Of a stretch of DNA of 64,000 nt, positions 6,786 through 21,871 are shown one piece after another (positions within the stretch are counted from its first letter, which is position 1; the number at the start of each line of letters is the position of its first letter). The stretch comes from Podarcis filfolensis. Lineage: Eukaryota. Made by a program: the position numbers and the translations under genes. The stretch is from the NCBI GenBank assembly GCA_964270895.1, contig OZ185443.1, one strand, 5' to 3'. The notes under the pieces were generated by a model. The model saw only the letters and a list, made by a program, of their open reading frames with translations. It had not been told where the DNA came from and made no database searches.

Positions 6786-7152
6786 TAGCTTTCAAAAATC
6801 CTAAATTGGAAGTACGCATTGCAGTTTTGAAAAAGATTTGGTACTGATCTCTTTGCAACCTGAGCTTTTAAATCACCATTGGATGTTTGTTTTCAAATTA
6901 TTTGTGACAGATTTGGGATTCCTCATGGACACATGTGAATGGTGTTGGAATGTTACGGGCTTCCTTGATATTCCTTTCCTTTCCCTGTCAAACAGAATAC
7001 CTATCACGAGCACAAACAGTGGTGATGATGGCAATGTTTTGTATGCTACTATTCTGGTGTGTTTTTTTGCTACTGTTTAGCTTCACTTATGTATTTAGGC
7101 TAGCCTGATCATAGTGCTTTATACAATGTTGTTTGGTTTAAGATGTTAAATT

Positions 7153-7504
7153 GTTGTTGTTTAGTCGTTTAGTCGTGTCCGACTCTTCGTGACCCCATGG
7201 ACCAGAGCATGCCAGGCACTCCTGTCTTCCACTGCCTCCCGCAGTTTGGTCAGACTCATGTTTGTAGCTTCGAGAACACTGTCCAACCATCTTGTCCTCT
7301 GTCATCCCCTTCTTCTTGTGCCCTCAATCTTTCCTAAATCAGGGTCTTTTCCAGGGAGTCTTCTCTTCTCATGAGGTGGCCAAAGTATTGGAGCCTCAGC
7401 TTCACGATCTGTCCTTCCAGTGAGCACTCAGGGCTGATTTCCTTAAGAATGGGTGCATTTGATCTTCTTGCAGTCCATGGGACTCTCAAGAGTCTCCTCC
7501 AGCA
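7153..7504 (-). mobile_element. RTE-BovB LINE, 5'-truncated
   Basis: BovB 3' end with (CAA)n tail; near-identical to 21003-21350; TSD ATGTTAAATT at 7143-7152 and 7505-7514. Confidence 0.93.
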
Positions 7505-7864
7505 ATGTTAAATTAGTGTTGTGCTGATATTTGTATTGTATTTGTTTTGTTTTTACAATGCACAGATTGATTTTTGCTGTACCTACTGATATTGTGATTT
7601 ATAATTATGGCTTCTAATGTTTTTGAATTGTTATACTTCCATTTGATATGTTGTGAGCCACTTTGGACACAGTGTTGTGGGAAAGTGGCATACAATAAAC
7701 AGATGATGATGAAATAGTAGTCACCTCTGTGGGCATTCTACCAAAACAATGAGCTAGATGGAGCAACAATCTGACTCAGTATAAGGCAGTTTTCCTATGT
7801 TCTCATGTTCATGTGACCAGAACCATGTACACCCAACATTTTTGCTGGATATATAATTGTACAA

Positions 7865-8160
7865 TATCCATTCTTAAGGAAATCAGCCCTGAGTGCTCAC
7901 TGGAAGGACAGATCCTGAAGCTGAGACTCAAATACTTTGGCCACCTCATGAGAAGAGAAGACTCCCTGGAAAAGACCCTGATGTTGGGAAAGATGGAGGG
8001 CACAAGGAGAAGGGGACGACAGAGGACAAGATAGTGTTCTTGAAGCTACCAGCATGAGTTTGACCAAACTGCGGGAGGCAGTGGAAGACAGGAGTGCCTG
8101 GCGTGCTCTGGTCCATGGGGTCACGAAGAGTCGGACACAACTAAACGACTAAACAACAAC
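7865..8160 (+). mobile_element. RTE-BovB LINE, 5'-truncated
   Basis: Encodes SILKEISPECSLEGQILKLRLKYFGHLMRREDSLEKTLMLGKMEG; tail actaaacgactaaacaacaac; TSD ATAATTG(T/C)ACAA at 7853-7864 and 8161-8172. Confidence 0.93.
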
Positions 8161-11100
8161 ATAATTGCACAAGTGGAGTTTGTGTGCATGTATGCTCTGT
8201 TAACAAGACTCAATGCGCACAGAACGACAGGGCCAGAAACTGTGATACTGATCACACACTGAGAAAGAGGAGTCACTACCACAAACAACTCTGGAGCCAA
8301 CTGATGATTCCCACGTAATCCTCCCCCTATGGTGTGGGCAGGGAGGTCCCTCCCCGTACCTGTCCTGATCACCTGGAAACGCCTCCCCGGGCGGGATTGG
8401 ACAACTGGCTGGGGTAGGCGGAGACTTCCAGGTATCCCACCTAGGATCCAGGGGGCTGCACGCAACCACGCAAAGGGTGGCCCCCACTTAATGTGTGGAG
8501 TGGTCATTATGTGGGCAGCTTCATAGACATTCTACTTCCAATACATCTAGAGTGAAAATATTAATTATTACAATTCACCTCTGCTGGATTCATCTCTACT
8601 GGATTATGTTCACCTGAGCAGACCTCAAAAATGCATTGTGCTACCAGAGTTTTGTGGTGGCTCAGAGCAGATGCCCTCACAACACACTAGAATAATAACA
8701 TGTGTGGTCCTCAAAGTTAATATATTGCTTTTGCTTTTTTCAGAATGCTTCTGCTAGTGCTTCAAAGAGCAGAACCTTCACTGAGGGCATATTACACATT
8801 ACCTTAATTATGTTTATATTGAAGGCAACTTTAGGAATTCTATAGGGAAATAGGCTTAAATTGTCTCACACTGCTCAATAATCAGTATATGTGCAGCAAC
8901 TTGAAGAAAAACCTGGAGGGGGAGTGGGAAAAAAACCCAGCCAATCTCTTGCTGCATTTGCTATTGAGCAGGTCAAGTACAAAGGGGCAGTAAATATTTA
9001 CAAGCATCTTGGTGGAGCTCCACAATAAGGTATTATTTACTAGGAGCAGTGTAAGCAGACTTGCTGTGCATAATGGGACTCTAGCATAGCACAGTCAGGA
9101 TATTAATTTGTATGAATAATGAATGTCATGCTACCGTGGTAGCAAGAAGTCTACTTCACGGTGAAACTAGGGAACCTGAAATGTGATCCTTCTCCCTAAT
9201 TAAGTTGAGGGTTTCTTCCATTTTTTTTAATTATATGATTTTAAAAGCTATGCAAAATTTATCACAGAATTCCCCATCTCTATGAGTGAGTATTTCTACT
9301 TTTTAGAAGACAAACAGTTCTATAGCCAGGCAAAGATGTAATGTAACACATAAATATGTTAAAACAGACAAATGCACATAAATTTGAATTGTATGTGCAG
9401 CCTTAGCACTCACAGAGTCTTTCAGTAGTGGGGATGGGGGCTAGATGTGCAACCTATCTAAACAATAATATCCCAGTTCTTCTGAGACTACTTCTTATTT
9501 AACAAGGGGATAATTATTATTTTTAAGTTGGAGATCTCCAGATTTCTACATCACTATTGCTACATTTTTTTATCTATTGTACCTGCAAGGAAATCGGGTG
9601 CGGGGGGGGGGGCATCAATACTGGGACAAATTAAAAAGGCAGTCAGAAGGGACTCCAAATACCTGAGCTCTCCCTGCAGATGTTGGGGTTGACCAGCATG
9701 CTGCACAATGTTGAGGCTGGCTCAAGGAGGCACCACTCTGTTCGACCCTTGACATGCTAGCTAATGCATGGTAGGAACATATACACTGGACCTCTGTTTC
9801 AAGTGGAACAAAAAGAAATCTCTATTTGCGCCCCGCCAACCAGGAGACAGAGTGGGAGCATGAACAAATGCAAAACACAAACAATGTTGGCTTCCCTTGG
9901 TAATTGTTATTCATTATTGAAGAGTAGAACTGTTTGGTTGAAAGGTATGCAAAAATGGCATGTGCCAGCAATTTTAATAAATCTGAGTTAGGTATGAGAA
10001 GTTTGGAATACATAGCTCTACCAGACCCAATTCAGCCATATCACCTCGAGACGAACAAAATGGTAGTTATCGCAAGGCAAAATCTTTCCTCATCATTTTT
10101 TTCAAGTGAAATGTAAGATACATATTTTATTAAATTTATTTTTTTAAGCTACAAAAATAAACATATCGAAACTAAATGTTCACATTAGGAAAAAGTGACA
10201 CATGGCCTGCTATATTCTTGAAATATTCTATATTCGTTCCAGAACATTGTGAACATTGCTCATTGCTTATAATAGCTTGAATAACTCCTTCCTGAACTTG
10301 CATTTAAAATATTAATTTCCACAAATCCATACCTCTGTCACTCAGATGGGAACATTTTGTCCAAATTTCACTGCTGGGATGAAGTCCATGAGACCTTCCA
10401 GCTCCTATGGGGGTTGTATTTGGCTGCCAATGAAAAGGAGTCATGTGTGACCATATTTGGGACATGTCATAGCATCACATTGGCCTCTTTCCTTCAGACA
10501 CAGCAGCACACACATGGGCCTCATTTAATGACATGGAATTAAATGGCTGTCAGTGTTGACTGAGTAGGAATTTTGGGGGTGCTCCTTTTTCACCTACTCC
10601 ATACAAATATTGATTTGGCTTGGATGGATTTGATGCAGCTGTTTGGCTTACTGTCCTAACTTATAGCGCATAGTGTGCATAGGAAAGTTAGTTGTATCAT
10701 TGCCATGGTAAATGCCTGAAGGCACCTGAAGTGAACAGCATTTGAGCAATCAACTTCACCGTACCACTCAGCTCATATTGACAGATGCTCTTGGGCACTG
10801 TAACCTTTACTGTGCTGAATGCTAACCAGCATGTGTAGGGTGGATAACAAGAGCCCCTTTCTGCTCACCTTCACAGTGAGTTGGCAATGAAACTTCCCCT
10901 TCTGGCTATAATGGTATGGAGGATTGAGCCAGGGTGATGTTACCCTTATGAGAAGATACAGGGATTGTACTTCAGTCGTCTCAATCTAGAGCAGCCCTCA
11001 GAACTACTTTAGCTTAGGTTTGGATGCTGCAGGTTCTTTATAGATTAATCAATGGTTTTGTGACCTTTCATCTGTATTTTTTCCTCATGGGGAAAGAATG

Positions 11101-17095: not shown

Positions 17096-18662
17096 TGTGG
17101 CACATTGTGTTCATCTCTACTCAGAAATAAGCCCTATGGTTAATAAGATTACAAAATTCCTGGTGTAGAAAAGATCAGTTTGCATTCTAGGTTGGAGAAT
17201 GGGCACTCTCCCTTTGACAATACAGATGCCAACAGTTATTTGAATCCATCTCTGGCATAATTGGAATTCACAGGCCTCTTGTAAGGTACAGAGTAGAAGA
17301 AGAGAAACATGTGACAGTCCTTATATGAGCAGAGCTGGATGTTAACATTAGATGACACAGAAGAACCTATGATATCCATAAGACTGTTGTGACATGCTAG
17401 TCTGGGGACTTATAGAAAAACAAGTGGCAATTCTTCTATGGATTCTAATTCTAGAACAAGACAGAGAAACTTCTGGCATTACCAGAGTGACCTTGGCACT
17501 GACTGGGGAGGAGGAAGGGGAGAGACACATTGCAAAAGTAACATTTGAAGCAGTGGGAAATCCTCATATGCACTCCTGCAAATTGAAATAAATGAGTTCA
17601 ACATCATAGGACCTGTATATACCATTGGAAAAATGTATTACCAGAATATGCCACAATCATTAAAGGGTGCATAATGGATCTTGACAGAATGACGTTCTTT
17701 TCTTCCCTGCACAGGCAGGAAATACATACAGCCTGACAGCAAACCATAAAGGGAATATAGATTATATTGCTATGAATATGTATATTACTGAAGTTTGGGA
17801 CTGTGCTAATGTTGAGTGAATTGAATTATTATACCATGCTGAAAATCACCTAAAATAAAATTAACTGAAGAGAAGGATGAATTAAGGAAGATAATTATCA
17901 AAATGAAACAGAGAAAGAGTAATGTAAATACTGCAAATTTGAGCAATGAACGGCAATTTGAAATACCCATCCAATATAACACTACATGCAGCATAAGGTC
18001 CTCTACTGCATCAGGTAAAACTCAAGTTTTACTTATTTACTTTCAGAGCAATCCAAAGGATGGGGAATCTGCCCAGTTGAGAGGACATGATCTTCATCTG
18101 ATGGAAGGGCTTCTCTCTCACTATGCTTGTTCCCTGCTCCAACTTGGGTGCTCCACCAAACAGATTGCCAATAGACAGAAAATCCCCACTAGGCTGCGTG
18201 GATGAGCTCCCCTATTCTGGGAGGGGGTAGTTTTATTGTATTCAAACCCCCTTCTGGTCCAGTGAATTGGGCTGAAGTGGGTGGTTTGGGTTGCACAGAT
18301 ACTTTAACTTGTATTTGTATAGCTTCTTTACCCCAAGTCACTCAGAACAGCTTACATTTAATGATGATAGCTTGCAATGTAAGGCTTATAATACAAAAAG
18401 AAAAGGGGGGAGGGGACAAAGAAGTATCAAATGTATCAAGTATCATACTGTTACATAAAGAAGTTTTGTAATGACCCTGTGGAATGGTCACTAGAGGAGA
18501 CAAAGTTGCAAGGGTGACAGCCAAATGGCAGTTGGTCCAGCGAACCCAATGGAGGGGGGCAGACTCTCATTCTCACCTCTCTCTTAGCTAAAAGCAGGTG
18601 GAATGGGTGCCGAAGGAGAAAATTCTGAGAGAAGCAAATGGCAGCTGGTGTCAGACAAATGG

Positions 18663-18736
18663 CATGCTCTGGCGTGCTCTGGTTCATGGGGTCACGAAGA
18701 GTCGGACACGACTAAATGACTAAACAACAACAACAA
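18663..18736 (+). mobile_element. Extremely 5'-truncated BovB 3' end (74 bp)
   Basis: ggcgtgctctggttcatggggtcacgaagagtcggacacgact + (CAA)n; TSD TCAGACAAATGG at 18651-18662 and 18737-18748. Confidence 0.9.
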
Positions 18737-18914
18737 TCAGACAAATGGATGGATGGAGCTTTGATTCACCACCTCTCTCTTAGACGTAGCCAGAAGGACT
18801 GGCTGCTTGTAGAGGCACTATATAGAAAATTGACATAATATGGATAATGTAATACAGTGAATTGACATAATGCAGATCCCTTTTTTGATTATTATTATTA
18901 TTAAAAAACACACA

Positions 18915-19727
18915 TGTCAGGGGCTCAGGAGCAGGAGCACAGGGGAGAGAGGAAATGGAGAGCGAAGGGGAAGAATCCGAGGGCAGCGTAGGGGAGTATG
19001 ACAGTGGCCCGAGAGATTCCATGAGCTTCTCCAGTGAATCAGAAGATTCCCAGAAGGGGGCGCCGACAGTCAGGGCAAGGGGGGTCCCAGGGGGGACGCA
19101 CCAGAAACAAGGAGCCAGCGGGGAACCCCAAAGCAGCAGAGGGGGATCAGGACCAGTTTCCCCACCAGAGCGTAGTGGGGGGGGGGAAGAGTCACATGTG
19201 TCAGGACCAGCGTCTCCTCCAGCGGGGAGAGAAAGTGAGTCAGGGCTGACCACGCCTCCAACGGAGGGGAGGTCAGTTGCAGCTAGCCCCCCCAGAGGGG
19301 GAAGCAGTGACAGCAGCAGTGAAACGGTCAGGAGGAAAGTTGCTGGCTGGGCGCGCGCGCCAAGTTCAAATGTACAGGCGTGGGGGACAGCAGGAGACCC
19401 GGATGGGGAACCAGCTCCTAAAGCCCGCCGGAGGGAGGGGGAAGGCTCAGGGGATTCAGCGTCAGAAGAGTCTAGAAAGGGCGAGACCCCAACGGACAGG
19501 CGGAACCAGAGGCGGAAAGAACAGAGGAAGAGGTGGAGTAAGGCTAGAGTCTTAAACTGGTGTCTGGGGGGAGGAGACTCAGACGGAGCATCAGCGGTCT
19601 GAGAGTTGAGACGTAGAGCCGCACGCTGCGGCTCTGGAAGTGAAACTGAACTTCAATAAAGACTTTTGTACTTAACAACGAAGCAGCGTTGGTCCTTTGT
19701 GAGCTGGGACCTCGGGCGGCTCTGACA
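18915..19727 (+). mobile_element. Solo LTR (probably Ty3/Gypsy), 813 bp
   Basis: Termini TGTCAG...CTGACA (inverted); 5-bp TSD ACACA at 18910-18914 and 19728-19732; AATAAA at 19655-19660; GC-rich with retained CpGs. Confidence 0.88.
18955..19602 (+). CDS. Putative LTR-embedded 215-aa ORF (acidic, disordered, Arg-rich C-terminus); expression unproven
   Basis: Uninterrupted ATG-TGA frame wholly inside the solo LTR, ending about 50 nt before AATAAA. Confidence 0.4.
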   Translation: MESEGEESEGSVGEYDSGPRDSMSFSSESEDSQKGAPTVRARGVPGGTHQKQGASGEPQSSRGGSGPVSPPERSGGGEESHVSGPASPPAGRESESGLTTPPTEGRSVAASPPRGGSSDSSSETVRRKVAGWARAPSSNVQAWGTAGDPDGEPAPKARRREGEGSGDSASEESRKGETPTDRRNQRRKEQRKRWSKARVLNWCLGGGDSDGASAV

Positions 19728-20187
19728 ACACATAACACCTTATGAAGTGGGCTCTGGTCCATATAGTCTTATTGTCCCATAAAGCTGTTACTTTTTAAAG
19801 TATCACAGGACTCTTAATTATTTCTAATGCCACAAGAACAGCACTGCTGGATCAAGCCAAAGTTTTACCAAGTCCAGGATTCTATTTCCAAGAAATCAAT
19901 AGCTGACCCACCTACACAAGCAAGACCTGAGTCTGAAGGTCTGGTCAATGTCCAGTCAATGTCAGCTTTCAAGCCAATTTCACTCCCAGGACATGTCATC
20001 AGAGAAATGCCTTTCTGAAGCCAGTTTTGGGACTGAAATTGATGCACCTCTAAATATTAAGGTTGCAACCCTATATCCAACAGTAAATCCCACTGACTTC
20101 CATGGAGATTATTTCTGAGTGGACAGGTAAAGGCTTGTACCGTAAGTGATGTTATTGAGGGCTAGATTGTACTTTAGTTTAGGCAAG

Positions 20188-20228: not shown

Positions 20229-21002
20229 GCCAGTAAATGGCTCTGACTAATAAAAGCTCCATTTATTAAGCTGCAGATATTTCAGTGATCAGTACATTGC
20301 ACTGATTAATCAATTATTGTGCAGTCCTCTGTCTAAAACTCCACTTCAGTTTCTATAAAGTTAATAAAATTGTAGTCTGTAATAAAAAAAAAAGTGACAA
20401 TCTGTGCTTCAGTGAAATACATTTGGTAAGATATTATTTTTTAAAAGAAGTTTTGTTATAAAACATGCATGATGAATTAGTCATAAAAAGTCAAAACATG
20501 TAAAATTAATGTTAAAAGATGTAATGTATTTTTCCTATTCCTTTCACCAACTATAAATCATTTCAAATGGCTTTTAGGTATGAATGATAGCTTTGTGCAG
20601 AACTGAGATGGGCCTGTCCTACAAATTGATACTAATGGCATAAGAATTATTAAGCAAATTAACATGAAACTTTATGACTGTGGCTTTATCTTCCTTCTGC
20701 GAAAAGTGGATCAATGATGAAATGCGTTTCTAAAACCATGGAGATAGCTCAGGTTTGTTTTTTGTTTTGTTTTTATAAAATCTCCATGATAATTTCTGAA
20801 ACTCTTTAGAAGCTCAATCCACATCTCATTTGTGCTAATGTACTTGCTTTATGCCATCAATTCAAGTTCTTTGGGTTATTGTGGATGGCTTTAACTATCA
20901 CACCTGCATTATAATTATGAAATGGCTTACTCTTAAGAAATCAATAGTAACATTAGGGGGTGAAATATCTTTAGGTATACAAAAAGCAGCAACATACATT
21001 TT

Positions 21003-21871
21003 TGTTGTTGTTTAGTCGTGCCCAACTCTTCATGACCCCATGGACCAGAGCACGCCAGGCACTCCTGTCTTCCACTGCCTCCCGCAGTTTTGTCAAACCC
21101 ATGCTGGTAGCTTTGAGAACACTGTCCAACCACCTCATCTGTCGTCCCCTTCTCCTTGTGCCCTCCATCTTTCCCAACATCAGGGTCTTTTCCAGGGAGT
21201 CTTCTCTTCTCATGAGGTAGCCAAAGTATTGGAGTCTCAGCTTCAAGATCTGTCCTTCCAGTGAGCACTCAGGGCTGATTTCCTTCAGAATGGAGAGATT
21301 TGATCTTCTTGCAGTCCATGGGACTCTCAAGAGTCTCCTCCAGCACCATAATTCAAAAGCATCAATTCTTCGGCGATCAGCCTTCTTTATGGTCCAGCTC
21401 TCACTTCCATACATTGCTACTGGGAAAACCATAGCTTTAACTATACAGACCTTTGTCGGCAAGGTGATGTCTCTGCTTATTAAGATGCTGTCTCGGTTTG
21501 TCATCACTTTTCTCCCAAGAAGCAGGCGTCTTTTAATTTCGTGGCTGCTGTCACCATCTGCAGTGATCATGGAGCCCAAGAAAGTAGATACCTCTCACTG
21601 CCTCCATTTCTTCCCCTTCTATTTGCCAGGAGGTGATGGGCCCAGTGGCCATGATCTTCGTTTTTTTTATGTTGAGCTTCAGACCATATTTTGCACACTC
21701 CTCTTTTACCCTCATGAAGAGGTTCTTTAATTCCCCCTCACTTTCTGCCATCAAAGTTGTGTCATCTGCATATCTGAGGTTGTTGATATTTCTTCCGGCA
21801 ACCTTAATTCCTGCTTGGGATTTATCCAGTCCAGCCTTTCGCATAATGAATTCTGCATATAAGTTAAATAA
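21003..21871 (-). mobile_element. RTE-BovB LINE, 5'-truncated, with the RT C-terminal half
   Basis: Two overlapping frames (21551-21844 with NLRYADDTTLMAESE...GLKLNIKKTKIM; 20971-21579 with RRIDAFELWCWRRLLRVPWTARRSN) joined by one frameshift; (CAA)n tail. Confidence 0.96.

Follow-up and report, generated by a model that had tools for sequence, protein, structure and literature searches.

A long open frame in a solo LTR of Podarcis filfolensis is very probably the C-terminal tail of a chromovirus Pol polyprotein

The long open frame of a solo LTR in the lizard Podarcis filfolensis very probably represents the C-terminal tail of a Pol polyprotein, which in full-length relatives is read through the PPT into the 3' LTR. 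As an overall explanation, we strongly favour a Pol tail that likely stays on integrase and whose basic tip would serve import or tethering. The LTR lies in the window analysed here, a 64,000-nt stretch of contig OZ185443.1 (Table 1). An earlier note on this DNA had suggested that U3 is coding and that translation of the frame uses the 3' LTR copy in the genomic transcript. Both suggestions are borne out by the Pol frame, which passes the PPT and enters the LTR at 3' LTRs. The same note had proposed a separate, ATG-started accessory protein comparable to Sag, Nef, Rev or Tat; this part fails, since the frame is continuous with Pol and the ATG is private to subfamily A, the subfamily of the solo LTR.

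Table 1. Coordinates of the solo LTR, its coding content and its putative signals, as positions in the window
Feature	Position	Strand	Remarks
Solo LTR, Ty3/Gypsy chromovirus (Tf1/sushi type), subfamily A	18915..19727	+	813 nt; full-length parents PR-RT-RH-IN
Left target-site duplication ACACA	18910..18914	+	
Right target-site duplication ACACA	19728..19732	+	
Pol/integrase C-terminal tail, 228-codon stop-free frame plus TGA	18916..19602	+	Would span the entire putative U3 and 7 codons of R
Internal Met, the start ATG of the earlier note	18955..18957	+	Subfamily A only
Acidic Ser-rich start of the LTR-coded tail, conserved SSESEDSQKGAP block	18916..19083	+	
Variable SP/TP linker	19084..19320	+	Most in-frame length changes fall here
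Two basic clusters (PKARRRE; RRNQRRKEQRKRWSKAR) with acidic spacer between	19375..19548	+	Candidate bipartite NLS or tether
V-L-N-W-C codons, overlapping TATA-like CTTAAA (19551-19556)	19549..19563	+	Putative TATA role, judged from position
Self-primer AGACGGAGCAT	19581..19591	+	Complement of the sequence directly after 5' LTRs; putative transcript 5' end (U3/R border)
AATAAA polyadenylation signal	19655..19660	+	
Antisense stop-free frame	18780..19499	-	Third codon positions common to the sense frame; most likely its shadow

The boundaries described earlier hold, the element beginning with TGTCAG, ending with CTGACA and being flanked on both sides by ACACA. So does the frame from ATG to TGA, which encodes 215 aa, takes up 648 of the 813 nt (80%), contains every motif quoted in the earlier note and stops before the AATAAA, which follows 52 nt past the stop. 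The sense frame is already open upstream of this ATG. The family is large, with 2817 candidate loci, and the 40 that were scored show 97-100% identity. Among the 30 loci closest to the solo LTR, 22 have a 5-bp TSD and three are 3' LTRs with the PPT directly before them. Retention of the frame, a check that had been proposed, gave a divided answer: read-through is kept in young sister lineages, whereas 13 of the 30 closest copies are broken (nine shifted and four with a stop, against 17 intact). The solo copy itself is a passive, inert recombination remnant. Its neighbourhood also holds a short interspersed repeat with an ACAACA-repeat end, with copies at 7151-7504, 7867-8161, 18655-18735 and 21000-21345; one copy lies 180 nt upstream of the solo LTR, and an inverted pair is formed at 7152-8161.

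A long frame could also arise by chance in G/A-rich DNA, as the earlier note had cautioned; the LTR is poor in T (13%), and the antisense frame is open too. Yet among 3000 dinucleotide shuffles, scored on either strand under three shuffling schemes, only 0.6-0.8% contained an ATG frame of at least 215 aa (P 0.006-0.008), and 1.3% contained a stop-free run of 245 codons. The frame has moreover survived 27% DNA divergence and numerous indels, and the codon models (omega) and the excess of third-position differences (p 1e-10) described below refute chance, to which we assign next to no probability. As for the antisense ORF of 157 aa noted earlier, the overlap is real, as 239 aa from a CTG or 80 aa from an ATG, and the length of 157 aa matches, by our count, a GTG start at residue 83 of the antisense frame. 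An antisense gene was rejected: the third codon positions are common to both frames, five of 10 representatives with an intact sense frame carry an antisense stop, and synonymous shuffles leave the antisense frame with only 0.4-2.3 stops. Together these results mark the antisense frame as most likely a shadow of the sense frame.

Read-through from Pol into the LTR is seen directly in a Podarcis lilfordi protein model (P0006), in which an acidic Pol end runs straight into the LTR frame, and in genome copies L036, L037 and L039. Exact PPT-LTR junctions of the family group number 876 in the genome, against 0 in a reversed control. At eighteen of the first 30 junctions by position, the LTR frame meets no stop in any of the 503 upstream codons examined, and 13 of these 18 also retain the full tail. 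Full-length loci picked by position had 1300+ Pol codons in frame with the LTR in 10 of 15 cases. In a search for diverged relatives, whose matches were chosen by protein score and are thereby biased to intact copies, about 70 of 150 (hand count) lie within open frames of 1164-1887 codons at 3' LTRs, and in the partner 5' LTRs the same frame as a rule spans only about 200-240 codons. Young sister lineages, with LTR pairs 99.9-100% identical, have unbroken frames of 1512 to 1868 codons that end in the tail. Pol models of Podarcis muralis likewise end in the tail, among them UniRef A0A670KNJ5 (1498 aa, RT-RH-IN), with 56% identity over 93% of it.

Subfamilies at about 93, 91, 78 and 73% LTR identity show read-through in every case, with tails of 195-232 aa and the same closing motif. 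In a search of this genome with a P. lilfordi piece the best match was at 68%, and a more distant subfamily was not found. A profile search of 1.84 billion proteins gave 10 matches, of which those named are lacertid, and none of the 10 showed a range beyond lizards. The P. lilfordi 'hypothetical proteins' P0005, P0006 and P0007 are pieces of the LTR frame, and probably reflect annotation of retrotransposon remnants, not of host genes. Two forms of the youngest lineage occur, one with separate gag and pol frames (L099, L107) and one with a single fused frame of 1868 codons (L098:978-6584). The fused form was the commonest long frame in the diverged-relative search and its LTR pairs are identical; the two-frame form has the word G GGA AAC near the gag end, which we take to be a slippery word of the PEG10 type.

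MMTV sag and HIV nef are separate genes coded in U3 of the 3' LTR, each with its own start and with spliced or own transcripts. The lizard element resembles them in that U3 of the 3' LTR codes for protein, and differs in that its frame is an extension of Pol; neither a conserved start of its own nor a frame separate from pol, the marks of a sag/nef-type gene, was found. An independent accessory gene in U3, with an ATG of its own and a spliced or internally started transcript, is accordingly very unlikely, although subfamily A offers a good Kozak context at 18955, every 3' LTR has an ATG in the PPT just 5' of it, and many subfamily A copies retain the LTR frame while being out of frame with Pol. 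A2, B, C, D and the outside relatives lack the ATG at 18955; its site reads EDWESEG, EQIESGG, TDGEESEG, EEIESEG or EETESEG in them, and the positions of Met differ between subfamilies. In young copies the frames are continuous with Pol, and the 1.2 kb upstream, scanned in two copies, holds a single pyrimidine-rich acceptor-like site. The resemblance of the basic tract to Rev and Tat, drawn earlier by eye, has no sequence support: the 215-aa protein has no match in Pfam, and a search of the Atlas gave no usable match. With the longer tail, the Atlas search returned Chromo clusters at 0.77-0.78, a lead only.

The weight against intact read-through comes from subfamily A itself. With the junction phase counted as net indels relative to a real in-frame copy, Pol and the LTR share a frame at seven of its 29 3' junctions, a shift of 1-2 nt in a G run separates them at 20, and two junctions are cut upstream; only one of the 29 is both in frame and followed by a full tail. 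These copies are older (LTR pairs 95.7-97.9%), four different G runs carry the shifts, and one amplified block of contig C19 accounts for 13 of the 29 junctions. The G-run shifts fit slippage after insertion or assembly error; the tail may also have been relaxed or lost in this subfamily. Contig C19 as a whole, mainly at 40.1-43.0 Mb (L134-L146, L014, L021), holds 21 of the 29 junctions, and the units of its amplified block are near-identical (99.9% over 3.8 kb). The contig is also rich in remains of other chromoviruses and of nested Copia and LINE elements, which is what one would expect on a W-like or heterochromatic chromosome.

Between distant subfamilies the tail shows purifying selection, which is undetectable among the closest ones. 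Pairwise GY94 codon models were fitted with our own implementation to one real copy per subfamily. For B versus D, they gave omega values of 0.03 for both RT and the integrase core and 0.07 for the chromodomain; the tail had 0.29 upstream of the LTR and 0.16 within it. For the LTR part, omega was 0.40 for A versus C (p 5e-5), 0.42 for B versus C, 0.16 for A versus D and 0.14 for C versus D, the lowest values being rough because the distant (D) pairs are near saturation (t 2.4-2.8). The dN/dS check that had been asked of the frame is thus answered in favour of coding by five distant pairs (0.14-0.42), whereas the close pairs A versus B (0.60, p 0.11) and A versus A2 (0.93) do not differ from 1. 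At least three close copies share each of 10 non-synonymous and six synonymous variants; with a neutral ratio of 2.6:1, these numbers are too small for a decision.

Differences at first, second and third codon positions were 31/35/62 between A and C (62 of 128 at third positions), 45/38/106 between A and D (106 of 189; p 1e-10) and 2/1/15 for a pair of D lineages. In DNA-only alignments, close subfamilies differed in length by 3, 9, 15 and 39 nt, multiples of three as a coding frame would have it; such alignments of distant pairs are too noisy for indel counts. Across four subfamilies, the acidic start block has 30 invariant columns out of 47 gapless ones, and synonymous changes occur in 19 of the 30; in the second basic cluster 12 of 17 residues are invariant, seven despite synonymous changes. 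Every block contains residues that stay invariant although their codons vary synonymously, which indicates that amino acids are being kept, beyond any DNA signals.

Full-length parents of about 6.5-6.7 kb were reached by following the PPT-bearing copies. Their Gag contains Retrotrans_gag, Ty3_capsid, DUF4939 and CCHC domains (Pfam), and their Pol has the order protease, RT, RNase H, integrase and SH3 (Pfam, locus L032). Classification of the RT, which the earlier note had recommended, places it closest to Ty3 (E 5e-65, against 3e-21 for the best retrovirus). With gag, PR-RT-RH-IN, a Ty3-like RT, TG..CA ends, a 5-bp TSD and a PPT, the parent is a Ty3/Gypsy LTR retrotransposon. After SH3 lies a chromodomain remnant that Pfam missed; over 54 aa it matches a sister-family domain above the Pfam Chromo cut-off at 52% identity (pairwise E 9e-16), and its best PDB match is the chromodomain of HP1-alpha (E 0.45). 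The aromatic residues of canonical chromodomains form a cage, and by alignment they are missing from the remnant. As judged from these comparisons, the parent carries a degenerate chromodomain at its integrase C-terminus, the mark of a chromovirus. About 370 aa of tail follow the chromodomain, of which 195-232 aa are coded in the LTR, and gag and pol stand in a -1 relation in most lineages.

The priming site assigns the element to the Tf1/sushi type, which self-primes and has no tRNA PBS. After the 5' LTRs, in place of a tRNA-type PBS, stands a sequence complementary to an 11-nt stretch of the LTR itself. Such a complement, of 10-12 nt, is present at 23 of 26 full-length loci, and the remaining three are explained by one point change and two mis-called LTR ends. 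Self-primer and PBS co-vary, with three sequence forms across subfamilies, and the duplex between them appears in five of six folds. The V-clade elements Sushi-ichi and Amn-san share with the lizard family the Gypsy domain order, the CCHC Gag and the chromodomain position, and also an 11-nt self-primer and a -1 relation of gag and pol, seen here in most lineages (bioRxiv 2022.12.06.519325, PMC6317226). The lizard family may differ from them in its long, partly LTR-coded tail and in a chromodomain that by alignment lacks the cage residues.

In Tf1/sushi elements the self-primer is the RNA 5' end, as described in the same two sources (bioRxiv 2022.12.06.519325, PMC6317226), and by this analogy U3 would end near 19580 and the transcript would start near 19581. 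The TATA-like CTTAAA lies 30 nt before this putative end of U3, and the Trp codon of V-L-N-W-C lies 23 nt before the self-primer. With such a start, 97% of the frame would lie upstream of the point at which the solo copy's promoter fires, and we infer that the frame is not expressed from the own promoter of a solo or 5' LTR; ribosomes would meet it only in the 3' LTR, where the genomic RNA ends. Contigs from four sequencing runs, tentatively taken as RNA, cover a full-length copy in all of its 30 bins and nowhere join the 5' region to U3, a result that weighs neither way, as run contigs cannot reveal starts, strand or absence.

A Pfam Chromo scan of the genome revealed four further families, 40-66% identical in Pol, whose LTRs (four compared) fail to align with those of the solo LTR's family. 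In their full-length loci the Pol stop falls 208-361 nt inside the 3' LTR in eight of nine cases and 31 nt inside it in one. Positions of stop and self-primer in the LTR are about 686/667 in the solo LTR's family and 302/280, 209/216, 362/390 and 308/275 in the others, and the tails of all five families are acidic with a basic cluster at the end. The motif L-x-[C/N]-W follows the basic cluster in the solo LTR's family, in F2, in F3 and in two outside proteins. In four families, 21-28 nt separate the Trp codon from the self-primer downstream, a spacing that makes a DNA role for this codon inseparable from a protein role. Third-position bias was absent from the single F3 pair (14/6/12) and from five read-through copies of F4 (8/13/7). 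F4 is an old family, in which seven of 19 copies read deep into U3 and 12 stop near the LTR start, seven copies stopping at the same place, 2 nt into the LTR. Its LTR-coded tail ends in RRRELVSPRRSARLKARR (L165:1699-2058; L168, L176, L185), which is reminiscent of the RRSARL core of the HMGN nucleosome-binding domain; a PDB search with this tail gave compositional matches only and does not support the likeness. A second very young chromovirus family (L191:2383-7877, L192) has a 1374-codon Pol frame in many copies and a 409-nt LTR without AATAAA and with its own self-primer.

One may ask whether the tail has a job at all, or whether the frame is open only because Pol must stop near the poly(A) site, which keeps the 3' UTR short and avoids nonsense-mediated decay, or because promoter and primer DNA are constrained. 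Indeed, stop and self-primer are at most about 35 nt apart in all five families. The final codons share their DNA with the TATA-like site and the self-primer. From family to family the tails differ greatly in length and sequence, and the LTR DNA is unalignable. A jobless tail would not by itself account for the invariant residues with synonymous change in every block (7/12 in the basic cluster), nor for the recurrence of the basic cluster and L-x-[C/N]-W in families and proteins 52-66% apart in Pol. We consider this explanation unlikely.

According to the reading we prefer, a Pol tail with a function on integrase, the genomic RNA would be translated as Gag-Pol, and ribosomes would pass pol and the PPT and then enter the 3' LTR. 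Pol would stop beside the self-primer, seven codons into R. After protease cleavage, mature integrase would keep the residues beyond its chromodomain, a disordered acidic linker followed by a tip of two basic clusters. By analogy with the elements discussed below, this tip may import or tether the integration complex, perhaps in place of the decayed chromodomain; such a role in nuclear import or tethering seems to us slightly favoured. The tail might instead be translated with Pol, cut off by protease and act as a separate acidic-basic protein, an RNA chaperone or nuclear factor. Retroelement proteases are known to cleave polyproteins within linkers, and here the linker is of low complexity and the Arg-rich end conserved. 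In composition, 78% of the residues of the 215-aa part are disorder-promoting, and there is no predicted fold (AlphaFold on a 10-sequence alignment, pLDDT 40.6, where even the chromodomain stayed unfolded, so that the value says little on the tail). What makes cleavage rather improbable is that the CRM and Ty1 analogues retain such tails on IN (PMC3059260, PMC10050235). If true, it would partly rescue the idea of the earlier note.

The analogues that support a retained tail come from plants and yeast. Pol running into the 3' LTR is already known for plant CRM elements, and in CRM group A a targeting motif is coded there, according to PMC3059260 and PMC3605345. The lizard family shares this layout and is not a member: CRM primes with tRNA-Met whereas the lizard family self-primes. 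In CRM the CR motif takes the place of the chromodomain, of which the lizard family keeps a remnant upstream of the PPT. CRM is centromeric; young lizard copies are dispersed along chromosomes, and older ones cluster at contig ends. PPT-LTR junctions do cluster there (C1:1-510000; C2:124.9-125.3 Mb), with 17 of the 47 junctions listed for C1 in its first 0.51 Mb, and the contig-end copies examined are mostly older and broken. Ty1 integrase has a disordered linker of 230 residues and a bipartite NLS framing a targeting segment (PMC10050235); the lizard tail is comparable, a putatively disordered linker of about 230 residues closed by two basic clusters that flank a short segment. This is a likeness in layout. 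Ty1 is a Copia element whose tail is coded inside pol before RT, outside the LTR, and the partner of its tail, AC40 of Pol III, has no known counterpart for the lizard tail. In the full texts searched, we met no report of Pol entering the LTR in vertebrate chromoviruses.

With these analogues in mind, one may speculate, as a single joint reading that we hold only tentatively, that a vertebrate chromovirus branch writes an integrase targeting module into U3, taking over site choice as the chromodomain decays. The module would consist of a disordered acidic tail and a basic cluster with L-x-[C/N]-W, pinned to the transcription start. It would conceivably be the animal equivalent, arrived at by convergence, of the CR motif of plants and the targeting domain of Ty1.

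Masking treats Gypsy LTRs as non-coding; in the lizard family almost the whole of U3 codes for Pol and is under selection as protein. As Pol runs into U3 in several families of one genome, LTR divergence and the dating derived from it need re-reading for these families. The LTR-coded tail also explains spurious 'hypothetical protein' models in Podarcis and goes unremarked in automated models. It offers a short candidate for how chromodomain-decayed vertebrate chromoviruses may reach the nucleus or choose their sites. If the reading of a targeting module in U3 were true, thousands of lizard LTRs would be promoter and protein code together.
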